This document shows, one piece after another, positions 16,982-61,654 of a DNA stretch of 64,000 nt (its first letter is position 1; every line of letters begins with the position of its first letter). The notes under the pieces are model-generated. The model made no database searches, was not told the origin of the DNA, and saw nothing but the letters and a program-made list of their open reading frames with translations. Both the position numbers and the translations under genes were made by a program. The DNA comes from Deltaproteobacteria bacterium RIFCSPHIGHO2_02_FULL_40_28 (lineage in GTDB: Bacteria > UBA10199 > 2-12-FULL-40-28): positions 10,042 through 74,041 of the forward strand of contig MGRJ01000009.1 of NCBI GenBank assembly GCA_001798135.1, in the 5' to 3' direction.

Positions 16982-17100
16982 TGAATGGGGGGTTATATCG
17001 AAAAAAAGGAGGATAAGTCCATGATTAAAAGGCCTGTCCGCGGAGGCCAGGGAAGGAAATCTTTTGACAGATGGGATCCAAGATGCTTTAGGTCCCCCTG

Positions 17101-18075
17101 ATGGATTTAAGAGATATTTGCCTTACCATGAGGCAGGAAATTGATGAACTAGAGAAGATAGTTCATGCCAACTTAAGTTCTACTGTCCCCTTTGTGGAAA
17201 ATGTAGTGGGGTATGTGATTCACAATGGGGGGAAGCGTTTGCGCCCTATTTTAACTCTCATTACTTCGAAACTGTCTGGTTACCAAGGAAGGGCTTCCTT
17301 AGAAATTGGGGCTGCTATCGAGTTTATGCATACGGCTTCACTGTTGCACGATGATGTTATCGATTCGGCTCCCATGCGGCGTGGCAGAGAAACCACCAAT
17401 CGTAAATGGGGAAACCAAGTGAGTGTTTTGGTGGGAGACTTTTTTTATTGTCGGGCCATGGATATTTTAGTGCGGCATGGAGATACCAAGGTTTTGCGTG
17501 TAGTTACAGATGCTGTTACCATTTTAACAGAGGGTGAAATTTTAGAAATCACCAAGAGCAATGATTTTCAAACAACTCAAGAAGATTATCTGCGCATCAT
17601 TACTGGAAAAACAGCGAGTTTGATTGGGGCTGCCTGTCAGTGTGGAGCTATTTTGGGTGGTGTGTCTGAGGAGTTTGAACATTCTCTTAAAAGATTTGGT
17701 CTTAATTTAGGTATTGCCTTTCAATTGGTGGATGATGTGCTTGATTATACAGCAGCTGTTGAAGAGTTTGGCAAGGTAAATGGTACTGATTTACGTGAAG
17801 GAAAATTAACCCTGCCACTTATTTTAGCTATTTCCAGAAGTACTGAAAAAGATCGAAGTATCATTCGTAAGGCTTTAATTACTGATAATACCTCGCCCAA
17901 AGAATTTGTCGAAGTTTTGCGTATTGTAGAAGAATGTGAGGGAATTAGAGATACCATCAAAATGGCAAGAGGGTATGTTGATCGTGCCACCCTTGGCCTT
18001 GCTTCTTTTAAACCCAGCCTAGAAAAAGAAACCCTTCAGCGTATTGCTGATTACGTGATTTCGAGGAAAATGTAG
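17101..18075 (+). CDS. ispB: Long-chain polyprenyl diphosphate synthase (IspB-like)
   Basis: GGKRLRP, LHDDVID, RRG, KTA and FQLVDDVLD motifs. Confidence 0.9.
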   Translation: MDLRDICLTMRQEIDELEKIVHANLSSTVPFVENVVGYVIHNGGKRLRPILTLITSKLSGYQGRASLEIGAAIEFMHTASLLHDDVIDSAPMRRGRETTNRKWGNQVSVLVGDFFYCRAMDILVRHGDTKVLRVVTDAVTILTEGEILEITKSNDFQTTQEDYLRIITGKTASLIGAACQCGAILGGVSEEFEHSLKRFGLNLGIAFQLVDDVLDYTAAVEEFGKVNGTDLREGKLTLPLILAISRSTEKDRSIIRKALITDNTSPKEFVEVLRIVEECEGIRDTIKMARGYVDRATLGLASFKPSLEKETLQRIADYVISRKM

Positions 18076-26954: not shown

Positions 26955-27950
26955 ATGAAAAAGAAAACCCCCTTATTTTTAACAATCGCCGACCCTGTGG
27001 AAAGTTTTAATCCCATTGCCGAGACTACTTTTTTCCTTTTACATGAAGTAAACCAAAGAGGTTTTGCAAATCTTATTGCAACCCCACAAGATCTTTTTTT
27101 TATGGAAGGGGAAGTTGCCCTCTATGCATCCTCCATTCATGTTGTCAGAAAACAAAAAAAGTTTAGTTACAAGCTGGGCCCCAAAAAGATTTTTTTTGTT
27201 CGGCTGGCTGATTGTGTTTTTCTAAGAAAAGATCCTCCTTGTGATCAAAACTATACCAATCACTTAAGTCTTTTGGGATTGGCTGAACAAAATGCCCTGG
27301 AATCAGGAAAGGGTGATTTACCCAAACCTCTTTTTGTTAATTCTCCCTCGGGCATTCATTTTGCTGGTGAGAAAATTTTGAATCTTTTTTTTCAAGATTT
27401 AGCTCCTCCTACTTTGATTGCTTCCCAAAAAGAAATTTTACTTAAAACGATAAATCGTTTTCGAAAAGCTGTTCTAAAACCACTTAATAGTTCTGGGGGC
27501 AGGGGAGTTTTGCTTGTTGATGCAAAAAATCCCAATGTAAACAGTTTGATTGAAATGACAACTGATGGATTTTCAACAAATGTGATTTGTCAAAAATTTC
27601 TTCCAGGATCTAAAAAAGGGGATAAAAGAATTTTATTATTGGATGGAAAACCTTTGGGTTGTTTTTTAAGAGTTGCCGCTCCTCATGATTTTCGAGGTAA
27701 TTTGCATAGTGGGGCCCACTTAAAGAAAGCCACTTTAAATTCAAGAGATGAAGAAATTATTGCGCGAGTTGGTCCTGTTATTAAAGAATTGGGTCTTTCC
27801 TTTGTAGGTCTTGATGTGATTGATGGTTTTTTAACTGAAATTAATACCACTTCTCCCATGGGAATTAATGAAATCAATCAAAATGAGAATTCTCAGGTTG
27901 AGAAAAAAGTAATCAATTGGATCTTGAACTGTCTTAATTTTGACGCTTAG
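26955..27950 (+). CDS. gshB: Glutathione synthetase (ATP-grasp)
   Basis: LRKDPP, EK, KPL..SGGRGV, GDKRI, FRGNLHSG, GLDVIDGFLTEINTTSP motifs. Confidence 0.88.
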   Translation: MKKKTPLFLTIADPVESFNPIAETTFFLLHEVNQRGFANLIATPQDLFFMEGEVALYASSIHVVRKQKKFSYKLGPKKIFFVRLADCVFLRKDPPCDQNYTNHLSLLGLAEQNALESGKGDLPKPLFVNSPSGIHFAGEKILNLFFQDLAPPTLIASQKEILLKTINRFRKAVLKPLNSSGGRGVLLVDAKNPNVNSLIEMTTDGFSTNVICQKFLPGSKKGDKRILLLDGKPLGCFLRVAAPHDFRGNLHSGAHLKKATLNSRDEEIIARVGPVIKELGLSFVGLDVIDGFLTEINTTSPMGINEINQNENSQVEKKVINWILNCLNFDA

Positions 27951-28251: not shown

Positions 28252-28298
28252 GAATTGATGGAAAACTATATTTTTCAACAGACCCCAAAGGAGTGATT

Positions 28299-30518
28299 AT
28301 GAAAACAAACATTGGGAAAATAGTCATCATTTTTAGTTTTGTTGTTTTGGGTTTTGTCCCAGCAACCTGGTCTGCTACCAAGTTTGCATTGGATGGTGGT
28401 GCTACTACCATGGGTCCTCCCAGTGCTGATCATGCAACTCCTATTGGGATTTTTACGGAACCAGATGCATCTGGAGTTAACCAGGTTTTCATGAGCACAG
28501 ATAATGGCTCTGGTGATATTACTGTTAAACAAGTAACCACAGGTTCTGAAACTAAAAGCAGACCTCTCTTTGTACCAGAATCAGATGGAACAACGGTTGT
28601 TGTTTTGAATGCAGATGTTGCAGAAACAAAAACTTGTGATGGTCCTGTGATTGTTTACTTGGTTGATGTGTTGGGCACAGGACAACTGCGTGGTACTTGT
28701 ATCCCTAGCGATTGGGCCACTTTAAGTGATGTAGCCACTTCAGACAATTATCATGTTTTTAACATTACGGAAACTTTGCTTAAGGATAAGAATCTGAATT
28801 ATTATGATATTACATCTCCTGTTACTGTTACTGCTTCCCTGGACTATGCTTTTGCTGCTGCAAGTGGTACTTTAGAATTTAGTAGAGATTATCATCAAAT
28901 TGCCTATACCCAAACTGATGGATCTTTAAACTATCTCTTGGTTGATTTTAAAAATGTGCAAGTAGATTACACGCATATAGATGAGGTTGCTGATTATTTT
29001 TGGATGATTAATAATCCTCCATCAGGTTTAAGTATTGGTACTTATGGAGCCAGCGCGTGGGATGGTTTTTTAAAGTCAGGTTTTACAAGTTTATCCAAAC
29101 CCCGTTTTTCGGTGAAGGGTGATCGCATTTATTTCTTGCGGGATGTAAATGGGACAAATCAATTAGGAGTAGTACCTGTTCGTGGGATGTCACCTGCACA
29201 AATTACTGAAATCGAAGGAAGCATTGCTGATATTACTCCACTGCTTCCCAATGAGTATGTGGCCTTTACCCTGAATACAGGGGGCTTAAATGAACTGGGG
29301 GTTATTTATGTAAGCATTGAGCAGAGCACAGTAGTTACCTTTTGCTCTGCCATTACAGCTTTTTCTGATCCTGCTTTTGCGAGTCAACATCCTGCCCTTG
29401 TTTATGTACCTGCCTCTGATGATGATAAAAAGGATGTAAAGGATAGCAAGACATTGCCCAAGGCCATTAAATTACTTCAGAACTTAAATATTAATAATCA
29501 TCCCTATGATGCTTCTCGTATGTTAGTTCAAGCAGCATCTTTTAAAGACAAGGCTACTGCTGCAGGTGCTGCTACTGCTGTTACTCCTCCTAGTGCTGCT
29601 GGTGCTGGAGTAGTAATAGATCGCATTACTAAGGGTGGTAAGGGGGCTTTGAAGGATGCTCTTGCTGCTGCTGCTGATTCCTCTGAAGATGGCGTGGGCA
29701 TTATGTATGATAGGGTAGATACTGCAGGTACAAATCTCTACTATACATGGTTAACAGAAGATCAATTAGCATGTGCAAGCATGGCTGCACAAACAGTGGC
29801 TGGTACTTCTTCCCCTGTCACTACGGTTACCAATCTCACTCTAGATCATTATGTTCAAACTTGTGATCAGGTGAACGAACATCCTCATTCTTACTATCCT
29901 TCCAATAAGGATGCTTCTTTTGCAGATCGTACAGATAGTGTGACCACTCCTCCGGATGTTATTTATCGCCGTATAGAAGGCAGTACCTCTTATCCTACTC
30001 ATTTACATGATATTACAACGACAGCTCCAGATTGTTCAACTTCATCTGCATCCGATCCAGCAGCTCCATCTGCTGAAGAAGTTCCTGCTGAGGAAGCTCC
30101 TTCTGAAGAAGCTGCTGCTGCTGTGGCTGCTTCCTGTGCTGATGCAGGGTGGTCTAGTAAGCAAATTTCCTATGACACTTACCGTGGCTTAGTACAAACA
30201 GGGAGCACCCCTGTTGCTGTTACCTTTCTAGATGGAACCACAGCCTATGCCTCGTTAATTGATGGAGAGATTTATTATGATGCAACGCCTGATGCCTTAA
30301 CTAAAACCGCTGCAGCTGTTACTGCTGGTAATCTTGCTTCAACTGAGGGTGTTGCCTGTGCCTCCAATAAAGCAGATGACGGTGCTTATGGAAGCGGATG
30401 TGCTTCTCTCAATCCTGGCCAAAGATCACCTGATGGAAGCTTGGTATTAGCAGTTCTTCTGGTGCTTGGAAGCGTGCCACAAATAACCCGAAGATTAGTC
30501 AAACATCGTTCAAAATAA
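28299..30518 (+). CDS. Large secreted/surface protein with a C-terminal Gly-Cys, TM and basic-tail sorting signal
   Basis: Signal peptide, Thr/Ala/Asp-rich body, EEVPAEEAPSEEAAAA linker, C-terminus GSGCASL...LVLAVLLVLG...RRLVKHRSK. AAGGAG SD. Confidence 0.85.
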   Translation: MKTNIGKIVIIFSFVVLGFVPATWSATKFALDGGATTMGPPSADHATPIGIFTEPDASGVNQVFMSTDNGSGDITVKQVTTGSETKSRPLFVPESDGTTVVVLNADVAETKTCDGPVIVYLVDVLGTGQLRGTCIPSDWATLSDVATSDNYHVFNITETLLKDKNLNYYDITSPVTVTASLDYAFAAASGTLEFSRDYHQIAYTQTDGSLNYLLVDFKNVQVDYTHIDEVADYFWMINNPPSGLSIGTYGASAWDGFLKSGFTSLSKPRFSVKGDRIYFLRDVNGTNQLGVVPVRGMSPAQITEIEGSIADITPLLPNEYVAFTLNTGGLNELGVIYVSIEQSTVVTFCSAITAFSDPAFASQHPALVYVPASDDDKKDVKDSKTLPKAIKLLQNLNINNHPYDASRMLVQAASFKDKATAAGAATAVTPPSAAGAGVVIDRITKGGKGALKDALAAAADSSEDGVGIMYDRVDTAGTNLYYTWLTEDQLACASMAAQTVAGTSSPVTTVTNLTLDHYVQTCDQVNEHPHSYYPSNKDASFADRTDSVTTPPDVIYRRIEGSTSYPTHLHDITTTAPDCSTSSASDPAAPSAEEVPAEEAPSEEAAAAVAASCADAGWSSKQISYDTYRGLVQTGSTPVAVTFLDGTTAYASLIDGEIYYDATPDALTKTAAAVTAGNLASTEGVACASNKADDGAYGSGCASLNPGQRSPDGSLVLAVLLVLGSVPQITRRLVKHRSK

Positions 30519-30580: not shown

Positions 30581-30619
30581 GCTTGCGAAGTAAACACTAA
30601 TCCTGTGAGAATCTTTCTC

Positions 30620-31834
30620 ATGGAGATTCTAAAAATTAAAAGCGTGGCGTCTATCCACGATGCCCGAAAAATTTATTCTGTTTCTGAAGTTACTTCGGAT
30701 CTTAAAACGCTTCTTGAAGATAATTTTCCATCACTGTGGGTTAAAGGTGAAATTTCCAATTTCAAAGAATCCCCCAATGGGCATTATTATTTTGTTTTAA
30801 AAGATGAATTTTCCCAAATGTCTCTGGTGATGTTTCGGGGACAAAATCGCCTTCTTAAATTCCAATTAGAAGATGGAATGGAAGTTTTAGTTCATGGTCA
30901 TCTTACTGTTTATCAGCCCAGAGGTCAGTGTCAGATGGCGTGCGATCATGTAGAGCCTTGTGGTGTTGGAGCTCTTCAATTAGCTTTCGAACAACTTAAA
31001 AAAAAATTAGAAGCCGAAGGCCTTTTTGATAGCAAGCGTAAGAGAGAACTTCCCTTACTTCCCAGAAAAGTAGGAATTATTACTTCTCCCAAGGGAGCTG
31101 TTTTTCATGACATGAAAAATGTAATTAAAAGGCGGTTTCCCAATATGGATCTTGTTTTTTTTCCAGTTCAGGTTCAAGGAGAAGGAGCTTCAGCTCAGAT
31201 TGCCCACGCCATTTTTCTTGCCAACCAAAGAGATGACATTGATGTTCTTATTGTAGGAAGAGGAGGGGGCTCTATCGAAGATCTTTGGGCTTTTAACGAA
31301 GAAATTGTTGTTCGTTCTATTGTCTCATCAAATATTCCTGTAGTTTCTGCTGTGGGGCATGAAACAGATTATACCCTCGCTGATTTTGCAGCTGATTTGC
31401 GTGCTCCCACTCCTTCAGCAGCAGCAGAATTAGTAGTTCCTGAAAAAGAACAGCTTCTTCTTGATTTGAAACGATTAGAGTTGGCCCTACCTCGTTTTTT
31501 AGAAGGCCCCACCTTACGATTGAGTTTGCTTTCCAAACAAATTATTTCACCGGGGCAAGTTCTTGATCGCTTGGATTTTAAAAGGCAAAGAGCCATGGAT
31601 TTTCTCATCAAAGTTTTTCCCAGATACTTGAAAGGGGTAGAACAAGACTTTCAAAAATTAGTTGCCCATTTAGAGCATCTTTCTCCCTTGGCTCCCTTGG
31701 CTCGTGGGTATTCCCTTGCTTTAAATGTTCTTACTGGTCAGCCCATTAAAAGTAGGAATGAAGCTACACAATTTCCTGTTTTTGATTTAAAGTTTTCAGA
31801 TGGTACATTAAAGGTGAAACAGGCCGCTGATTGA
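30620..31834 (+). CDS. xseA: Exodeoxyribonuclease VII large subunit
   Basis: WVKGEISN, GHYYFVLKD, GRGGGSIEDLW, AVGHETD and RAPTPSAAAE motifs. Confidence 0.96.
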   Translation: MEILKIKSVASIHDARKIYSVSEVTSDLKTLLEDNFPSLWVKGEISNFKESPNGHYYFVLKDEFSQMSLVMFRGQNRLLKFQLEDGMEVLVHGHLTVYQPRGQCQMACDHVEPCGVGALQLAFEQLKKKLEAEGLFDSKRKRELPLLPRKVGIITSPKGAVFHDMKNVIKRRFPNMDLVFFPVQVQGEGASAQIAHAIFLANQRDDIDVLIVGRGGGSIEDLWAFNEEIVVRSIVSSNIPVVSAVGHETDYTLADFAADLRAPTPSAAAELVVPEKEQLLLDLKRLELALPRFLEGPTLRLSLLSKQIISPGQVLDRLDFKRQRAMDFLIKVFPRYLKGVEQDFQKLVAHLEHLSPLAPLARGYSLALNVLTGQPIKSRNEATQFPVFDLKFSDGTLKVKQAAD

Positions 31835-31865: not shown

Positions 31866-32117
31866 ATGGCAAAAAAAAATAAGGAATCCCAAGAGATCAG
31901 GTTTGAGGATGCCATTCTTCGTTTGGAAAACATTGTCCAAAAATTAGAAGATGGTAAATTAAATCTGGATGATTCACTCAAATATTTTGAGGAAGGGGTT
32001 AAACTTTCCAGAACTTGTGAAGCCAAACTTTCTGAAGCCAAAGGACGTGTAGAAATTTTGATGAAGGGCATAGCAAAAGCCAGTAAAGAATCCCCCGAGG
32101 AAGAAAATGTCTCTTGA
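31866..32117 (+). CDS. xseB: Exodeoxyribonuclease VII small subunit
   Basis: FEDAILRLENIVQKLE...LDDSLKYFEEGVKL. Confidence 0.95.
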   Translation: MAKKNKESQEIRFEDAILRLENIVQKLEDGKLNLDDSLKYFEEGVKLSRTCEAKLSEAKGRVEILMKGIAKASKESPEEENVS

Positions 32118-32988
32118 GACTTATTTCAAAGAAAAAGGCCCTGTTATTGAGGCTGCCTTAAAAAATACTCTCGAATCTAACAGTTACATCCCTGACAATT
32201 TGCGTTCCTCTATGCTTTATAGCTTAATGGCTGGAGGTAAAAGATTGAGACCCCTTCTTTGTTTGGCTGCTTGTGAAGCTTGTGGGGGAGATCATCAATT
32301 AGCCATGGCTCCTGCTGTTGCCTTGGAAATGATCCATACATTTTCACTGATCCATGATGATTTGCCGGCCATGGATAACGATGATTTGAGAAGAGGAAAA
32401 CCCACCAACCACAAAGTTTACGGTGAGGCCATGGCTATTTTAGCTGGTGATGGGATGTCTCTTTTTGCTTTTGAAGTTTTAATTCAACTTGGAGCAAAAA
32501 TTCCTGCTCCTCGTCTTGTGGCTCTTGTTGCAGAAATTGCAAAAGCCTCTGGTCCTACCGGAATGGTTGGAGGCCAGGTTTTAGATATGGAAGCCGAGGG
32601 TAAAAAAATTAATTTGGATCACTTAAGGCAATTACACCATAAAAAAACAGCCTGTCTTATCATGGCTTCTGTGGTTTGCGGGGCACTCACTGTAACAGAT
32701 GATAAAAAGAGTATTGAAAATTTACGTTCTTTTGGAAATCAAATTGGGCTCGCCTTTCAGATTGCTGATGATATTTTAGACATTGAAGGTGGCGAAGAAA
32801 TTGGTAAGGACTTAAAAAGTGATCTCAAAAAAGGGAAAATGACTTATCCAGCCCTGATGGGTTTAACAGAGGCTAAAAAAGAAGGTCGGCTTGTCCTTGA
32901 TTCTGCGCTTAAATCTTTGGATAGCTTTGGAAGCAAAGCTCATCTCTTGCGTGAGATGGCTTATTTTGTCATTGAAAGAAAAAAATAA
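32107..32988 (+). CDS. ispA: Farnesyl/geranylgeranyl diphosphate synthase
   Basis: GGKRLRP, IHDDLPAMDNDDLRRG, GQ..D, KT and FQIADDILD motifs. Confidence 0.95.
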   Translation: MSLETYFKEKGPVIEAALKNTLESNSYIPDNLRSSMLYSLMAGGKRLRPLLCLAACEACGGDHQLAMAPAVALEMIHTFSLIHDDLPAMDNDDLRRGKPTNHKVYGEAMAILAGDGMSLFAFEVLIQLGAKIPAPRLVALVAEIAKASGPTGMVGGQVLDMEAEGKKINLDHLRQLHHKKTACLIMASVVCGALTVTDDKKSIENLRSFGNQIGLAFQIADDILDIEGGEEIGKDLKSDLKKGKMTYPALMGLTEAKKEGRLVLDSALKSLDSFGSKAHLLREMAYFVIERKK

Positions 32989-33413
32989 TGCGTCATTCTG
33001 TTTTTACATTTGAAGTTGCAACTCAAAATCATTTTGATTTAATCGATGTGACTGATGAAGTTTTGAAGTGGTGTGAGAAGGAAAAATTTTTGGATGGGCA
33101 TATGTTGATTCAATCAGCGCATACCACAACTGCTATTCGTATTAATGAAAGTTGTGACGAACTCAAAAAAGATCTCACCCTGTTATTAGAAAAGTTGGTG
33201 CCTCAAAAAGGAAACTATTTTCATAATCATTCTGCAGTTGATGGAAGAAATAACGCTCATAGTCACTTGGTTAGTTATCTGATGGGAGCAAGCGAAGGTG
33301 TTGTTGTACAAAAGGGCAAACCTCTTTTAGGCAGTTGGCAGAGAATTTTTTTTGTTGAATTAGATGGCCCTCGTAAAAGAAGGCAAATTATTTTTAGTTT
33401 CATTGGTTCATGA
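32988..33413 (+). CDS. yjbQ: YjbQ (UPF0047) family protein
   Basis: HTT...INE, NAHSHL and LGSWQRIFFVELDGPR motifs. Confidence 0.9.
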   Translation: MRHSVFTFEVATQNHFDLIDVTDEVLKWCEKEKFLDGHMLIQSAHTTTAIRINESCDELKKDLTLLLEKLVPQKGNYFHNHSAVDGRNNAHSHLVSYLMGASEGVVVQKGKPLLGSWQRIFFVELDGPRKRRQIIFSFIGS

Positions 33414-34726
33414 TTTATCTTTCTGACATACCAGGTTTTGAAACCCAATTAGAAAAACTTTCTAAAGATAATTATATTTTTTGCGATTATTTTTTTGAAA
33501 CTTCGGAAGATCCAAAATGGGCTTGTGCCTCTCTTTGCAGCGAAGCAACAACTGCTCAATGGGTAAGTTCTAAAAGTACCGAAGATTTGAGAAATATTTA
33601 TGGAGCAAAATTTTTTAATTTAAAAATTGAAGGAGAATTTTCCACACCCCTTTATCCTCAACCTTGGATTCAAGGTTCTCGTTTTTTCAGATGTCACATG
33701 ACCATGGCTCTTCCACTTATTAATCTTAATGGAAGTTTGGCCGTTCTTTTATCTACCTTGGCAGGAGAGGGGGCTTTTTATTGTCCGGGACTCACAACAG
33801 TAAAACTTTTGGATCTCCATTTTCCTTCTTCCTATCTCAAACTTTTTAAAGGACCACCATTTGGCATTAAAGGATTAAGAGATTATCTCAAAATTTATGA
33901 TCGTCCTTTTTTTATTGGTGTTGTTAAACCTAACTTAGGGTTAAAGCCTGCAGATTTTTCTACTTTGGCTTTTGAAAGTTGGTTAGGCGGTTTAGATATT
34001 GCCAAGGATGATGAAATGTTTACTGATGTACAATACAATCCATTAATCGAGCGTTTAACTCTTTGTGCTCAAAAAATGAAAGAAGCTATAGATTTTACAG
34101 GGCAAAAGAAAATGATGATAGCAAATTTTTCGGCTAGTTATTTTTCTCTTCTTTCTGATTATCATTCTTTAACTAAGCTGGGTGTAAATGGGTTTATGAT
34201 CAATACTTTTTTTTCTGGGTTTTCTGCTCTCCAGCATTTATGCCATATTTCAACACATCCTGTGATGGGGCACTTTACAGGAATGGCCCTTTGGGATCGT
34301 ATGCCCCATTTTGGTATTGAAGGTTCTGTTTTAATTAAGCTTCAAAGATTGGCAGGAGCTGATATGATCGTTTTTCCTGGTTTTGGAGATCGAATGCAAA
34401 CAACGCCTGAAATTGTTTTAAAAAACATTCAAGCTTGTTTAGCCCCCATGGGTTCTATTTCCCCTTCACTTCCTGTGCCTGGAGGCAGTGATTGGGCGGG
34501 TAGTCTTCCCTTCATTTTTAATAAACTGAAAAATGTTGATTTTGGTTTTATTGCCGGTCGTGGAATTTATGATCATCCCATGGGGCCACAAGGTGGTGCC
34601 CAAAGCCTACACCAAGCTTGGGAAGCTATTTCAAAGGAAGAAAAACTTTCTGATTATGTGCAAAATAATTCTGGTTGTCTCGCTTTGAAGTCAGCCCTGG
34701 ATTATTTTGGAAAGAAAAAAACATGA
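33410..34726 (+). CDS. RuBisCO-like protein (form IV)
   Basis: GPPFG, VKPNLG, GGLDIAKDDE, RLAGAD, PGFGDR, PVPGGS and GRG..HPMGP..GA motifs. The K177 and K334 equivalents are substituted (N, R). Confidence 0.92.
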   Translation: MIYLSDIPGFETQLEKLSKDNYIFCDYFFETSEDPKWACASLCSEATTAQWVSSKSTEDLRNIYGAKFFNLKIEGEFSTPLYPQPWIQGSRFFRCHMTMALPLINLNGSLAVLLSTLAGEGAFYCPGLTTVKLLDLHFPSSYLKLFKGPPFGIKGLRDYLKIYDRPFFIGVVKPNLGLKPADFSTLAFESWLGGLDIAKDDEMFTDVQYNPLIERLTLCAQKMKEAIDFTGQKKMMIANFSASYFSLLSDYHSLTKLGVNGFMINTFFSGFSALQHLCHISTHPVMGHFTGMALWDRMPHFGIEGSVLIKLQRLAGADMIVFPGFGDRMQTTPEIVLKNIQACLAPMGSISPSLPVPGGSDWAGSLPFIFNKLKNVDFGFIAGRGIYDHPMGPQGGAQSLHQAWEAISKEEKLSDYVQNNSGCLALKSALDYFGKKKT

Positions 34727-35835
34727 TTCCACCTAAAGGAGCCACAACCGAAGCAACGATGGATTGGGTGTCTTCTCAGAAAAAAAATATTCATTCTGAG
34801 AAAAAAAGATCCCTGGCAGATTTTTATGTGTCAGTTTTGGGGGTGGGAACTTACTTGGGTTCTTATGATGAAGTCACAGATAAACTTTATGAGGACACCA
34901 TTGAGTTAGCACTTTTAAGTGGAGTTAATTTGATTGACTCCGCCATTAATTATCGTTGTCAGCGCAGCGAGAAACTTATAGGGCGAGTTTTAAAGAAACT
35001 GCAGGATCAAAAAAAGATTTCTCGTGATGAAATTGTTGTTTGTACCAAAGGTGGATTTATTCCCTTTGATTTGGTACCTCCCGAAAGTCTTCCTGGGCAT
35101 ATTAAAAAAAATTGGCTGAATACGGGCATTGTAAGTGAAGAAGATATTGTTTCGTCTTGTCATTGTCTGCATCCTCGTTTTCTTCAGGGGATGATTGATC
35201 AAAGTCTTGCTAATTTGGGACTAGATACCATTGATATTTATTATTTGCATAATCCAGAAACTCAATTGTCAGGGGCCCAGCCTGATGTTTTTTATTCCAG
35301 ACTTTATGAAGCCTTTTGCCTTCTTGAGGAAAATGTTTCCAAAGGCAAGATTCAGTTTTATGGTTTGGCAACATGGACTGCTTTTCGAACTGAAGGAAAT
35401 GAATCAATTTCACTTAAAACTATTCTCGATTTAGCTCTCAAAGCAGGTGGGGAATCTCATCATTTAAAAGTGATTCAACTTCCCTATAATTTGGCAATGC
35501 TTGAGGCTGTGGGGATTCATAACCAAGAATACAAAGGGGAACTCTATCCTATTCTGTCAGCGGCTTCTTTTTATGGAATTGATGTTGTGATTTCTGCACC
35601 TCTTTTACAAGGGCAACTAGGGCATCTTCCCCAACCCCTCATGCACAAACTACCAGGGTCACTCATGGCGCCTGGGAGGGCTCTTCAATTTGTTACTTCT
35701 ACACCAGGAGTTGCAGCTGCTCTTGTAGGGATGAAAACCAAAGCCCATTGGGAACAAAACAAGATAGTTCTTACCGAAGCTAACTGGGACTTGAAAGTGT
35801 TAGAAGAAGTGTGTCGTTATTTAATCAAGGGCTAG
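34723..35835 (+). CDS. Aldo/keto reductase
   Basis: LGVGTY, IDSAINY, CTKGG, SLANLGLDTIDIYYLHNPE, IQLPYN and LVGM motifs. Confidence 0.9.
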   Translation: MIPPKGATTEATMDWVSSQKKNIHSEKKRSLADFYVSVLGVGTYLGSYDEVTDKLYEDTIELALLSGVNLIDSAINYRCQRSEKLIGRVLKKLQDQKKISRDEIVVCTKGGFIPFDLVPPESLPGHIKKNWLNTGIVSEEDIVSSCHCLHPRFLQGMIDQSLANLGLDTIDIYYLHNPETQLSGAQPDVFYSRLYEAFCLLEENVSKGKIQFYGLATWTAFRTEGNESISLKTILDLALKAGGESHHLKVIQLPYNLAMLEAVGIHNQEYKGELYPILSAASFYGIDVVISAPLLQGQLGHLPQPLMHKLPGSLMAPGRALQFVTSTPGVAAALVGMKTKAHWEQNKIVLTEANWDLKVLEEVCRYLIKG

Positions 35836-36531
35836 CTCTAAATACAAAATACGTCTACAACGGGGGCAACTAATCAAGCTATTTAAACGGTGAAGATCGT
35901 TAAAAATCTGAGGTGGAATTTTGGTATTGCATTCGCAACAAAAACCATTTTTTGCAAGAGCTAAAGCTGGATTAATCTTTTGACGAATAAGATTATAATG
36001 GTGTATCATTGTAACTTCTACTCCCTCTAAGAACTGCTCTCTTTCAAGGGATTTGGCTTGTCTTTTTTCTTCAATACTTTTTAATTGTTCCTTCATTTTT
36101 TCTACTTCAGTACTTGTTGTATTTTTTTCACCCTCTACCTTATTTTCGGATTCGCTTATACGATTTTGTTCGTTTTGAATGGCATCAGTCAACTTTGTAA
36201 TTTGTTCTTCCAAAAGGTTGATTGTTTTTTTTGCAAGTGAGATTTCTTTTAAGAGGGCATGGTATTCTTTGTTGGTTTTAATGGCTTTAAGTTTTTCTTC
36301 ACCTTTAACAATCCAATCTTTTTTTTCTGTAAGATCAGATTCTTTTGATCTTTTTTCAGATTCTAAATTAGCCAGGATGGTTTTATAATTTTCGAATTCA
36401 TGAACTCTATTTTTTTGTTCTGCTTCGAAGGTAAGTATTGCTTGAGGGAGGCTTAAAAGAAGCTCTTCTAATTCGAGAAGCTCTGCATCAATTTGAGAGA
36501 GCCCAACCAGTTTTTTAAGTTTATCTTTCAA
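35821..36531 (-). CDS. Coiled-coil plus C4 zinc-ribbon protein (DUF164, CT398/HP0958-like)
   Basis: Long coiled coil with KTNKEY; C-terminal CCEC...CPRCRRIL; GGAGG SD before the TTG. Confidence 0.85.
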   Translation of the reverse strand: MKDKLKKLVGLSQIDAELLELEELLLSLPQAILTFEAEQKNRVHEFENYKTILANLESEKRSKESDLTEKKDWIVKGEEKLKAIKTNKEYHALLKEISLAKKTINLLEEQITKLTDAIQNEQNRISESENKVEGEKNTTSTEVEKMKEQLKSIEEKRQAKSLEREQFLEGVEVTMIHHYNLIRQKINPALALAKNGFCCECNTKIPPQIFNDLHRLNSLISCPRCRRILYLELALD

Positions 36532-41431: not shown

Positions 41432-42457
41432 TCACCTGTCTGGTTGCTGCTGGGTTAGGCAGTGGCATGCCCCCAATCCAAAAACTAAATCTCTGGCAGG
41501 AATTTCAATAATTTTACGGGTAGAAAAACAAGATGCAATGATTTCTAGGGCATGCTCATCATTTTTATCTTGGAAGGTAGGCACTAAAACAACCTTGTTA
41601 CCGATGTAAAAATTAGCATAAGAGGCTGGAAGTCTTACTCCTTGATTGATTACAGGTTTGGGCATGGGAAGAAGGATAATTTCTAAAGAACGATTTTCGG
41701 CATCTTTCATTTTTTCTAAGAGTTTAATATTTGTACGAAGAGGAATATAGTTTGCATCTGAAGTATGATCTTCAATAATGCTGATCACTTTTCCTGGAGC
41801 TACAAAGCGGGTTAAATCATCGATGTGGCCATCGGTATCATCCCCTACAATTCCATCTTTAAGCCATAAGATTTTTTTAACACCTAAATTGTCATAAAGA
41901 ATTTTTTCAATTTGATTTTTTTTGAGATGAGGATTTCGATTGGGATTTAAAAGACAGGATTCTGTTGTAAGGAGGGTTCCGCAGCCGTCTGCCTCTATGG
42001 ATCCTCCCTCTAAAATCATTCCAGGTGAAAATTTTTTAAATTCAAGAAATTGAGCAATCCGGGATGGAATTTTTTCATCTAAATCCCATGGAGGGTACTT
42101 TCCTCCCCACATATTAAAGCCCCAATGAATGAGAGCTAGCTCGGATGCATTTTTAACAAAAGTGGGGCCGTAATCCCTGATCCAACTGTCATTGGTTGGA
42201 AAAGAATGAATGGTAAAATTTTGAACACCTTCATCTGTTAAAAGTTTTTGGATCTTTTGAGGATTAAGATTGTGGTTGATGTTGATATGAACATGCTCTC
42301 CTAGAGACAAGGCTTTAACCATTTCTACATAAACTTTTTCTATCTGGGGAAGTTTGCCAGGCCAGGTTTCTGGATTATGTGGCCAGGTAAGCCATGTAGC
42401 CTGATGAGTTTCCCATTCTGCAGGCATGGTAAATCCAAGCTCGGTGGGGGTATTCAT
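41432..42457 (-). CDS. aguA: Agmatine deiminase family protein
   Basis: MPAEWE, WIRDYGP, LEGGSI, DTDGHID, ASYANF and GACHCLTQQ motifs. Confidence 0.93.
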   Translation of the reverse strand: MNTPTELGFTMPAEWETHQATWLTWPHNPETWPGKLPQIEKVYVEMVKALSLGEHVHININHNLNPQKIQKLLTDEGVQNFTIHSFPTNDSWIRDYGPTFVKNASELALIHWGFNMWGGKYPPWDLDEKIPSRIAQFLEFKKFSPGMILEGGSIEADGCGTLLTTESCLLNPNRNPHLKKNQIEKILYDNLGVKKILWLKDGIVGDDTDGHIDDLTRFVAPGKVISIIEDHTSDANYIPLRTNIKLLEKMKDAENRSLEIILLPMPKPVINQGVRLPASYANFYIGNKVVLVPTFQDKNDEHALEIIASCFSTRKIIEIPARDLVFGLGACHCLTQQQPDR

Positions 42458-43329
42458 GTTTTTGTTTGAGTTAAAGGTTTGAAAGAATCAGAACGGCGGC
42501 AATCAAGAAAGGGCCAATCATTTTGCACTTCTTGGATGAGGTCTAGATCGCAATTGACTATAAGAGTTTCTTCCTTATCGTGCGAAGCTTGGGTTAAAAT
42601 TTTTCCAAAAGGGCCACAGAAAAAAGAGCCTCCCCAAAAATCAATTTGATTTTCTTTTCCACATCGGTTGGTAACACCAACAAATACTGTATTGGCAATG
42701 GCATGAGATCTTTGAATGGTAACCCAAGCCTCAAATTCAATTTTTCCCTGGGATGTTTTACTTTCCTCCCCAGGCCATCCAATGGAAGTGGGATAAAAAA
42801 TAATTTGAGCTCCCTTTACCGCTAACATTCTTGCGGCTTCAGGATACCATTGGTCCCAACATACTAAAACTCCAATTTTCCCATAAATGGTTTCAAACAC
42901 AGGATAGCCCAGATCTCCTGGTGTAAAGTAATACATCTCAGAATAATGATTTTTTAAATCATCGGGGATGTGCATTTTTCGATATTTGCCTAAAAGTTTC
43001 CCTTCCTGATCTATCACAATGGCTGTGTTGTAATAATGGGTTTCCTCTTTTTCAAAAAGAGAAGCAATAAGTACCACCTTATTTTGCTTGGCACATTGGG
43101 CTAATTTTTCAGTTGTAGGTCCTGGAATATTTTCTGCCAGTGAAAAATATTTTTGATTATTGGTTTGGCAAAAATAAAGGGATGAAAAAAGTTCTTGAAG
43201 ACAAACAATATGAGCACCTTTTGAAGCTGCTTCTTGAATGCGAGAGATGGCTTTGTTTAAATTGGCATCCACATTCTCCTCACCTGTCATTTGAACAAGG
43301 CCAACAGAAATTTTATTTTGTTTCAGCAT
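42454..43329 (-). CDS. aguB: N-carbamoylputrescine amidase (carbon-nitrogen hydrolase)
   Basis: LQELF, YRKMHIP, VCWDQWYPE and QRSHAIAN motifs; overlaps aguA. Confidence 0.9.
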   Translation of the reverse strand: MLKQNKISVGLVQMTGEENVDANLNKAISRIQEAASKGAHIVCLQELFSSLYFCQTNNQKYFSLAENIPGPTTEKLAQCAKQNKVVLIASLFEKEETHYYNTAIVIDQEGKLLGKYRKMHIPDDLKNHYSEMYYFTPGDLGYPVFETIYGKIGVLVCWDQWYPEAARMLAVKGAQIIFYPTSIGWPGEESKTSQGKIEFEAWVTIQRSHAIANTVFVGVTNRCGKENQIDFWGGSFFCGPFGKILTQASHDKEETLIVNCDLDLIQEVQNDWPFLDCRRSDSFKPLTQTKT

Positions 43330-43484
43330 ACACTTGTATTATTTTTACAATGTTATTTTTGTACGCGCCATCATTTTTTTATAAAAGGAATTTCTTTTGA
43401 GATTGTACACTTGCGGAATTTTCGCTACCATTGTAATAAATTATAATAAATGAGTGTCTTGATAGCCATCCTGCTCATAAAATT

Positions 43485-60376: not shown

Positions 60377-60478
60377 GGTATTTTCGAGAGGGGATTTATT
60401 TTGACAAAACGCCATAAAGTCCATTATAAGGCCAAAGCCCCGCGGGTAAATCACCCTAAGGGAAAAAAAAGGAGTCTT

Positions 60479-61654
60479 ATGAAGCCACCCTATCTTTTTA
60501 CTTCTGAATCAGTCACCGAAGGTCATCCAGACAAAGTAGCTGATCAAATCTCAGATGCAGTTCTTGATGCTTGTTTGAAGCAGGATGAATTATCCCGGGT
60601 TGCCTGTGAAACCCTAGTAACAACAGGCCTGACTGTCATTGCAGGTGAAATTACAACCAAGGCAGTTTTAGATATACAAAACATTGCCAGATCTGTGATT
60701 CGCGAAATTGGTTATACTGATTCATCGATGGGTTTTGATGCACAGAGTTCTGCTGTGGTTGTTGCCCTAGATCGCCAGTCTCCTGATATTTCTCAAGGTG
60801 TTACTGAAGGGGAGGGGCTTTATAAAGAAATGGGTGCGGGAGATCAAGGTCTCATGTTTGGTTATGCCTGTGATGACACTCCTGAATTAATGCCCATGCC
60901 CATTGCTTTTGCTCATCGTTTAACACGGGAGTTAGCTCATGCTAGAAAAAGTGGCGAGCTTTCTTGGCTAAGGCCTGATGGGAAATCCCAAGTAACCATT
61001 GAGTATAAAAATAATGAACCTGTGCGTGTAGATACTATTGTTATTTCTACCCAACATGACTCTCAAGTAGAACATGCTCAAATTACCGAAGCTGTAACCA
61101 ACCAGATCATCAAAAAAGTGATTCCTGCCGAGCTTTTAAAGGGCACACGTTTTTTAATTAATCCTACAGGTCGCTTTGTTATTGGTGGCCCACATGGTGA
61201 TTGTGGACTTACTGGAAGAAAAATTATTGTGGATACCTATGGTGGAATGGGTCGTCATGGAGGCGGAGCTTTTTCAGGCAAAGATCCCAGTAAGGTTGAT
61301 CGTTCTGCCTGTTACATGGCCCGCTATGTAGCTAAAAACATTGTGGCAGCAGGGCTGGCTAGAAAATGTGAAATCCAAGTAGCCTATGCCATTGGTTTTC
61401 CTGAGCCGGTTTCTTTGGCGGTAAATACTTTTGATACTGGTAAGGTAGCTGAAGAAAAAATTGAAGCTGCTGTTCGTGAAATTTTTAGCTTTAAGCCTGC
61501 TCATATCATCAAGTACTTAAACTTAAGAAAACCTATTTACTTTCAAACGGCCAGTTATGGACATTTTGGAAGATCCGATAAGGAATTTTCTTGGGAAAAA
61601 ACAGACAAGGTTGATGAACTCAAACAAGTGATCAAAGTAAGACAAGTTGGATAA
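60479..61654 (+). CDS. metK: S-adenosylmethionine synthase
   Basis: [19 protein letters not shown] and GGGAFSGKD motifs; AGGAG SD before the ATG at 60479. Confidence 0.98.

Follow-up and report, generated by a model that had tools for sequence, protein, structure and literature searches.

The genes for a YjbQ/UPF0047 protein and a RuBisCO-like protein (RLP) of the Form IV-Photo type, as assigned from its closest structural relatives, lie directly behind xseB and ispA in a stretch of 64,000 nt of contig MGRJ01000009.1 from Deltaproteobacteria bacterium RIFCSPHIGHO2_02_FULL_40_28 (hereafter the window; coordinates without a locus or contig label are window positions). This is the place that dxs, the gene for DXP (1-deoxy-D-xylulose 5-phosphate) synthase, holds in E. 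coli. The pair recurs behind ispA in related genomes, most of which lack dxs, and yjbQ and RLP together are the strongest candidate for a so far undescribed way into the methylerythritol phosphate (MEP) pathway of isoprenoid synthesis. We propose that MtnP and MtnA make 5-deoxy- or 5-methylthio-ribulose 1-phosphate and that RLP with YjbQ converts this ketose phosphate to DXP, a reading to which we give slightly less than an even chance (about 0.45); we infer every chemical step of it, from gene content, synteny and phyletic patterns that are observed.

In the open reading frame (ORF) list of the window, xseA-xseB-ispA-yjbQ-RLP-AKR, the last being the gene of an aldo-keto reductase (AKR), form a single tightly coupled operon on the forward strand:

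30605..31834, + strand: xseA, exodeoxyribonuclease VII large subunit, heading the conserved block (TIGR00237 435.6 bits, cut-off 180)
31866..32117, + strand: xseB, exodeoxyribonuclease VII small subunit (PF02609, Exonuc_VII_S, 73.7 bits; NF002140 79.7 bits)
32107..32988, + strand: ispA, farnesyl diphosphate synthase (NF045485 363.8 bits, cut-off 275; 45% identity to E. coli IspA)
32988..33413, + strand: yjbQ (UPF0047), the conserved partner of RLP (TIGR00149 118.3 bits, cut-off 67.75; PF01894 114.2 bits, cut-off 27)
33410..34726, + strand: putative Form IV-Photo RLP, proposed pentulose-phosphate isomerase yielding DXP (PF00016 140.2 bits, residues 152-431)
34723..35835, + strand: AKR, lineage-specific accessory gene (PF00248, Aldo_ket_red, 84.6 bits)

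The exact overlaps are 11 nt for xseB/ispA, 1 nt for ispA/yjbQ, 4 nt for yjbQ/RLP and 4 nt for RLP/AKR. For AKR the ORF list gives a TTG start at 34675; an ATG at 34723 lies in an ATGA junction (34723-34726) and produces the 4-nt overlap with the RLP stop codon. An earlier note on this DNA had described a coupled operon with these overlaps and had reported that dxs is missing from the window; the ORF coordinates agree with the former, and no dxs was found in the window. The canonical order that it had assumed for comparison is that of the annotated E. coli K-12 record, which reads xseB-ispA-dxs-yajO on one strand. The E. coli order is alike in that an AKR gene comes last, whereas here yjbQ-RLP stands in place of dxs.

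The genome of the window (2.16 Mb, 31 contigs, completeness 100%, contamination 0.03%) contains a MEP pathway that is complete save its first enzyme. A genome-wide search for dxs gave no TIGR00204 match above the cut-off of 465.95 bits; the top match, with 193.7 bits, fell on a split transketolase, and the best matches, all below the cut-off, were two split transketolase pairs and one 2-oxoacid dehydrogenase E1. Above their cut-offs were dxr (504 bits), ispH (228 bits) and ispE (212 bits), and ispD, ispF and ispG were detected in the genome by tblastn. The gene for 3-hydroxy-3-methylglutaryl coenzyme A (HMG-CoA) reductase is absent from the genome. The inventory of dxs, dxr, ispD-H and mevalonate genes that the earlier note had suggested thus gives dxr and ispD-H as found, dxs and HMG-CoA reductase as not found. 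Since dxr and ispD/E/F/G/H are present and both dxs and HMG-CoA reductase are absent, a Dxs-independent source of DXP is needed.

A rival view is that dxs exists and was overlooked, because it lies in a gap of the assembly, has diverged strongly or is split. The assembly does consist of 31 contigs, and the genome holds two split transketolase-like pairs. We considered a split transketolase as a hidden Dxs and rejected it: with the transketolase model (NF004559) the housekeeping pair reaches 307 + 292 bits, 599 bits summed, versus 55 + 192 bits with the dxs model, and the second pair belongs to a polysaccharide cluster. Together with the completeness of 100%, with the absence of dxs from 50 of the 63 high-quality genomes of the phylum and with one relative (G136) that is a single contig, estimated at 97% completeness, with dxr and without dxs, this makes an overlooked dxs very improbable. 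The two split transketolase pairs map to C24:82900-84632 and C24:166253-168009 of the same genome, and one of them is situated inside a polysaccharide-biosynthesis cluster where it adjoins rfbA- and rfbC-like genes.

The Dxs-less MEP pathway is a property of the lineage. A census of 93 species genomes of the phylum, all from one class and 63 of them of high quality, revealed dxr in 90/93 genomes (63/63 of high quality) and dxs in 17/93 (13/63 of high quality). HMG-CoA reductase was found in 2/93 genomes, RLP in 58/93 and MtnA in 85/93.

RLP has more than 1,100 relatives; the gene contexts were surveyed for the best 80 loci from GTDB species genomes, in which neighbours were identified by phmmer against the window proteins. 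The complete order xseB-ispA-yjbQ-RLP was present in 18 of these loci, ispA-RLP without yjbQ in 3, yjbQ-RLP without ispA in 26 and neither neighbour in 33, and yjbQ adjoins RLP in 44/80 loci. The arrangement ispA-(yjbQ)-RLP is not a matter of chance, as it recurs in 21 of the 80 loci. Directly after RLP, five ispA-linked loci (L012, L013, L017, L022 and L030) carry tlyA and a gene for a tetratricopeptide repeat protein; with ispA upstream and tlyA downstream, the pair fills the ispA-tlyA gap, and this position is the one of dxs in the E. coli K-12 record. The genomes with an ispA-linked RLP lack dxs in 18/21 cases, and dxr was found in 17 of the first 18. Where genomes of the phylum do bear dxs, it was located away from ispA in all of those examined (8/8). 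A protein of about 200 amino acids (aa) with a signal peptide and without a Pfam family is encoded 3' of RLP in 8 loci (e.g. L034:9259-9867, L053:9304-9879 and L041:5642-6394). It was considered as a core member and rejected, being absent from the genome of the window.

Annotation of the neighbours with Pfam and NCBIfam, followed by a scan of all 80 loci, revealed isoprenoid genes next to the pair in other lineages as well. In Chromatiales (purple sulfur bacteria) idi adjoins yjbQ-RLP in 12 loci, two of which were confirmed with 170 and 174 bits (cut-off 127). In DPANN archaea yjbQ-RLP is embedded among MEP genes in 3 loci (ispD, ispF, dxs or ispG, in some loci fewer than all four); the order at L058:6255-13095 is ispD-Nudix-yjbQ-RLP-ispF-dxs-ispG, and L060 and L068 hold part of this set. 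These Iainarchaeum-type archaea have a MEP cluster of bacterial style, which is unusual for archaea, and the L058 contig also bears dxr. In Micrarchaeota mtnA adjoins the pair in 2 loci, the copy at L061 lying just upstream (414 bits, cut-off 279). Altogether an isoprenoid gene lies alongside RLP in 33 of the 44 yjbQ-linked loci versus 3 of the 36 without an adjacent yjbQ, and in those 3 the gene is ispA.

The RLP loci without yjbQ look catabolic. Those of Chlorobi (L063:4773-10132, L088 and L089) are flanked by a fusion of class II aldolase and short-chain dehydrogenase/reductase (SDR), by a thiolase of the LsrF type (3-hydroxy-5-phosphonooxypentane-2,4-dione thiolase, 516 bits, cut-off 297) and by an SDR; these surroundings hint at 1-deoxy-pentulose-phosphate chemistry. 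Those of Desulfobacterota contain genes for a class II aldolase, RpiB and a major facilitator superfamily (MFS) transporter and a lactonase-like gene. Chloroflexi encode RpiB::RLP fusions of about 630 aa at L020:7383-9281 and nine similar loci, adjoining genes for xylose-isomerase-like triosephosphate isomerase (TIM) barrels and a metallo-beta-lactamase-fold gene; dxs was absent in 16/16 of the Chloroflexi genomes checked and dxr in all 14 of those also checked for it. We rejected the fusions as a sign of a ribulose 5-phosphate (Ru5P) substrate, for they belong to a separate yjbQ-less clade and have little bearing on the enzyme of the window. In a quick maximum-likelihood tree the catabolic forms make up one derived clade (support 94), the Chromatiaceae and Chlorobi proteins another (support 99), and the ispA-linked and archaeal yjbQ-linked RLPs are basal and paraphyletic; the branch that leads to the RLP of the window is long (1.36), which leaves the precise placement of this protein uncertain.

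Among solved structures, the best relatives of the RLP are the C. tepidum RLP (1TEL/1YKW, 392 bits) and R. palustris RLP2 (2QYG, 362 bits), both Form IV-Photo proteins, followed by 3NWR (163 bits) and the MtnW enolases (about 129 bits). No NCBIfam model matched the RLP above its cut-off, the best being OiaX with 174 bits (cut-off 700). By these matches the protein is assigned to the Photo clade and not to the DeepYkr clade of the R. rubrum enzyme, in line with the difference in clade that the earlier note had suspected. It is the only member of the RuBisCO family in this genome, where no second such gene was found. The motifs K173-P-N175, K199-D-D-E202 and H288-F289 do not vary among 25 family members and are identical to those of 1TEL. 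Consistent with Form IV-Photo, residues of the carboxylase are substituted (K177, R295 and others, in what we take to be spinach numbering) while the motif of the carbamylated lysine and metal is kept. In the same presumed numbering F takes the place of R295 and V that of H327. The second phosphate site thus numbered appears hydrophobic, which would suit a singly phosphorylated substrate whose tail is methyl or methylthio. Photo RLPs were still said to be of unknown function in 2018 (PMC5893883) and again in 2024 (PMC10892978).

The YjbQ protein of the window is a clear member of the YjbQ/UPF0047 family (E. coli YjbQ; PDB 1XBF, 1VMH, 1VE0), whose known members have solved structures and only weak side activities, and which here is paired with an RLP. 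The side activities are those of a thiamin-phosphate synthase and a multicopy suppression of pdxB (PMC3010111). In 27 RLP-linked copies H45, H79, H93, D85, E124 and D126 are invariant. A search for Rosetta-stone fusions of YjbQ among longer proteins revealed none, which is weak evidence. Co-inheritance of YjbQ and RLP was considered and dropped as an argument, since a UPF0047 gene is present in 5/5 of the RLP-less genomes tested and paralogues make the comparison uninformative. A literature search, partly at the level of titles and abstracts, revealed no publication linking RLPs to YjbQ or to the dxs slot and no published proposal joining a RuBisCO-like protein, deoxyadenosine and DXP.

The enzymes that could supply the pair are encoded in the genome. 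The earlier note had also pointed to salvage of 5'-methylthioadenosine (MTA), and both mtnP and mtnA were detected (MtnP: TIGR01694 322.3 bits, cut-off 274.85; MtnA: TIGR00512 446.1 bits, cut-off 279). The genome contains no PF00596 match for a class II aldolase, hence neither MtnB nor Ald2, no acireductone dioxygenase (ARD) and no phosphoribulokinase (PRK) were found in it, and it has no PF01564 match for a spermidine/spermine synthase. With MtnA present and class II aldolase and ARD missing, the MtnA product has no known consumer here but RLP. The lack of a spermidine synthase implies that the main substrate of MtnP should be 5'-deoxyadenosine released by radical S-adenosylmethionine (SAM) enzymes. 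Ribulose 1,5-bisphosphate, from which RLP might remove the C1 phosphate by beta-elimination, was considered as a substrate and rejected: PRK is missing, and the sole IF-2B protein of the genome is of the MtnA type and not a ribose-1,5-bisphosphate isomerase.

In the route we propose, MtnP would phosphorolyse 5'-deoxyadenosine (and any MTA), and MtnA would isomerise the product to 5-deoxy- or 5-methylthio-ribulose 1-phosphate. RLP may then shift the carbonyl in the manner of the R. rubrum enzyme acting on 5-methylthioribulose 1-phosphate (MTRu-1P); by chemical reasoning the 5-deoxy substrate would give DXP or its 3-epimer with no need for desulfurisation. YjbQ might finish the conversion by an epimerisation, by a second proton shift or by taking off the methylthio group, a step that the cupin carries out in R. 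rubrum; this role of YjbQ is a guess. Dxr would carry DXP onward, and AKR would be an accessory found only in the order of the window.

Among known systems, the MTA-isoprenoid shunt of R. rubrum and R. palustris (MtnP, MtnA, DeepYkr RLP and a cupin methylsulfurylase) comes closest; it is described as an MTA-salvage route to DXP in PMC5893883. According to the same source, the DeepYkr RLP makes 5-methylthioxylulose 5-phosphate (MTXu-5P) en route to DXP, and traces of this reaction are seen in vitro with the R. palustris Photo RLP2. Common to both systems are MtnP and MtnA, an RLP, a link to DXP and the MEP pathway and SAM by-products as the presumed carbon source. They differ in that the RLP here is assigned to the Photo and not to the DeepYkr clade, its partner is YjbQ and not a cupin, and the genes lie in the dxs slot of dxs-less genomes; the lack of a spermidine synthase in the genome of the window points to 5'-deoxyadenosine rather than MTA. 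The dihydroxyacetone phosphate (DHAP) shunt (MtnP, MtnA and the class II aldolase Ald2) has the first two enzymes in common; here, however, a class II aldolase is missing, and RLP would take the ketose phosphate. The Form IV-Photo RLPs of C. tepidum and R. palustris are the closest solved relatives with identical active-site motifs and share a clade with the Chlorobi and Chromatiaceae sequences, but the Chlorobi copies lack yjbQ and have the aldolase/SDR fusion, LsrF-type thiolase and SDR mentioned above as neighbours.

Several observations weigh against the route. Within the phylum RLP presence is independent of dxs: the tally made by hand gives 48 genomes with RLP and without dxs, 10 with both, 7 with dxs alone and 28 with neither, i.e. 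RLP in 48/76 dxs-less versus 10/17 dxs-bearing genomes, and a simple complementarity of RLP and dxs was rejected on these counts. Outside the phylum, dxs is present in 23/26 genomes whose yjbQ-RLP pair is not linked to ispA. With RLP independent of dxs in the phylum and 23 of the 26 unlinked holders equipped with dxs, the module is not simply a replacement of Dxs; RLP can coexist with Dxs, like the R. rubrum shunt. In 28 genomes of the phylum dxr is present without dxs or any PF00016 gene, so another route to DXP must exist; a divergent RLP hiding in them was considered and rejected (PF00016 in 0/28). YjbQ does not co-vary with RLP, as seen in the 5 RLP-less genomes, and operon neighbours need not share a function, xseB being an example. 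MTA should be scarce, given the lack of spermidine synthase, and a rough estimate puts the output of 5'-deoxyadenosine several-fold under the isoprenoid demand. Such a low flux makes a role as sole source doubtful; that role would require an extra SAM-cleaving flux or another substrate. In R. palustris, MTA metabolism was unaffected by deletion of the Photo RLP2, and this enzyme when purified was barely active on MTRu-1P (PMC5893883). The relatives counted are moreover related to each other and many of them are metagenome-assembled genomes, so the counts are not independent.

Some of these points would be accounted for if YjbQ-RLP merely disposed of the SAM by-products 5'-deoxyadenosine and MTA and perhaps leaked a DXP-like product, with the bulk of DXP coming from another source. 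MtnP and MtnA without a known downstream enzyme would then be explained, as would dxs alongside yjbQ-RLP in the 23 non-ispA-linked genomes and alongside RLP in 10 genomes of the phylum; 28 genomes manage without dxs and RLP, and the flux estimate speaks against a sole-source role. Disposal leaves unexplained, however, why in three unrelated lineages the pair is located in the dxs slot, next to idi or within a MEP cluster, and no other source of DXP was found. A shift of the R. rubrum type on 5-deoxyribulose 1-phosphate would in any case yield DXP or its epimer. We regard mere disposal as unlikely.

The genomes with neither gene led to a second occupant of the slot. The ispA regions of 13 of the 28 genomes (L111-L123) were taken, and 9 of the 13 contain genes for Zn-dependent medium-chain dehydrogenases beside ispA, e.g. 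at L114:8152-9273(-) and L112:6059-7081(-). The best model for these proteins is threonine dehydrogenase (Tdh) with about 165-179 bits, far under its cut-off. As a pair, such Tdh-like enzymes take up the ispA-tlyA slot in relatives lacking both dxs and RLP, and within the phylum the pair and RLP almost exclude each other. The gene lies directly 3' of ispA in one family and between ispA and tlyA in others. With a profile built from nine of the sequences and a threshold of 290 bits that was set after the scores were known, a dehydrogenase of at least 290 bits was found in 24/28 of the genomes with neither dxs nor RLP, plus one with fragments, the remaining three being 67-87% complete; it was also found in 5/7 genomes with dxs and without RLP. 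At this threshold, 29/35 RLP-less genomes (plus the one with fragments) versus 1/58 RLP-bearing genomes carry it. The sole RLP-bearing genome with such a dehydrogenase has a divergent RLP (36% identity), and the next-best RLP-bearing genome reached 223 bits. The genome of the window contains no homologue of the dehydrogenase. Both states, RLP and dehydrogenase, occur within each of five families (f4, f16, f19, f21 and f24), which implies several switches among related genomes. We read this as an in-place displacement of RLP/YjbQ and the dehydrogenase pair by one another, as enzyme sets that do the same job.

It is possible, too, that the pair has nothing to do with DXP, that it takes part, for example, in the metabolism of sulfur or oxidative stress, as has been proposed for C. 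tepidum, or in the catabolism of sugar phosphates, and that its adjacency to ispA is a historical accident. xseB shows that this operon has mixed functions, sister clades of the RLP are found among catabolic genes (aldolases, RpiB, MFS transporters, lactonase-like genes), and the phenotype of the C. tepidum mutant is reported as related to sulfur and stress (as cited in PMC5893883 and PMC6389311). An accident would nevertheless have to produce three isoprenoid contexts in three lineages, tied to the yjbQ-linked form in the proportions given above, and a module that is swapped within its slot for another enzyme pair, and it would leave 76/93 genomes in need of a DXP source that is otherwise missing. 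An unrelated function is therefore rather improbable. The boldest form of the proposed route holds that YjbQ and the Photo RLP would be a dedicated Dxs-independent module turning 5-deoxyribulose 1-phosphate into DXP, that they would be the sole source of DXP in about half of the phylum and that they would be interchangeable in the ispA-tlyA slot with the Tdh-like Zn-dehydrogenase pair as a second, likewise undescribed solution. In this full extent we hold it to be doubtful.

The earlier note had grouped AKR with RLP and YjbQ as a trio and had suggested a route to DXP for the three. Of this interpretation the yjbQ-RLP pair is upheld, but the part given to AKR is not supported. AKR orthologues were found in 8/93 genomes of the phylum, nearly all from the order of the window, versus 58/93 for RLP, and AKR adjoins RLP in 1/80 loci; a conserved RLP-YjbQ-AKR unit is not supported by these numbers. 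What co-occurrence preserves is yjbQ-RLP beside ispA (18 of the 80 loci, plus 3 with ispA only) and not AKR. Its alignment with E. coli YajO spans 240 aa at 25% identity, 27% of it being gaps (E 6e-9), and the caution that the protein had not been shown to be a YajO orthologue was justified, as it is none. No NCBIfam AKR model matched it above cut-off. The catalytic Asp-Tyr-Lys-His tetrad was identified by eye in the translation, which contains the motifs IDSAINY, CTKGG and YYLHNP. AKR being a lineage-specific add-on, a YajO-like conversion of Ru5P to DXP is not the conserved mechanism.

The chemistry implied by that grouping, resembling the YajO/RibB bypass of Dxs in E. coli, is that RLP would enolise and dehydrate a pentulose 5-phosphate such as Ru5P to a 1-deoxy-2,3-diketone, which AKR would reduce to DXP. 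The translational coupling of AKR to RLP, its linkage to RLP or ispA in relatives of the same order, the position of yajO after dxs in E. coli and the LsrF-type thiolase beside the Chlorobi RLP, a thiolase that acts on an isomer of that diketone, all speak in its favour. The rarity of AKR orthologues and their low identity to YajO stand in opposition, as do the RpiB-fused and RpiB-linked RLPs, which make up a clade of their own in genomes that lack both dxs and dxr, and the second phosphate site of RLP, which appears hydrophobic in the numbering we assume. This makes a Ru5P route through AKR quite improbable. In a relative of the same order (L119, G169:C69, 4530-7415) xseA-xseB-ispA is followed by an 825-bp gap without a long ORF and then by an AKR orthologue; this relative has no yjbQ or RLP and carries the dehydrogenase pair elsewhere in its genome, an arrangement that looks like a recent swap.

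A survey from 2023 counted a MEP pathway lacking only Dxs in 181 of about 4,400 species, of which 172 were left unexplained (PMC10663253). The synteny and phyletic data join such Dxs-less species, the IV-Photo RLP and YjbQ/UPF0047 into one testable hypothesis. In its boldest form, with the dehydrogenase pair as the alternative, the hypothesis would if true settle what two long-standing orphan families, IV-Photo RLP and UPF0047, do, and would add two new entries to the MEP pathway; a DXP route independent of both Dxs and thiamin would be of interest to terpenoid engineers.

Further genes border the operon of the window on both sides. Directly 5' of xseA lies a gene for a protein of 741 aa (28293-30518, + strand) with an N-terminal signal-like segment and a composition rich in Ala, Thr and Ser, for which no match was found in Pfam or NCBIfam. 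Convergent with AKR and overlapping its end by 15 nt is a gene for a CT398/CdsZ-like coiled-coil protein with a C4 zinc ribbon (35821-36531, - strand). Elsewhere in the window, among 17092-18072, 26955-27947, 41435-43338 and 60377-61651, are genes for a long-chain polyprenyl diphosphate synthase, a glutathione synthase and metK, and the same regions encode agmatine deiminase and N-carbamoylputrescine amidase, indicating putrescine synthesis without a spermidine synthase.

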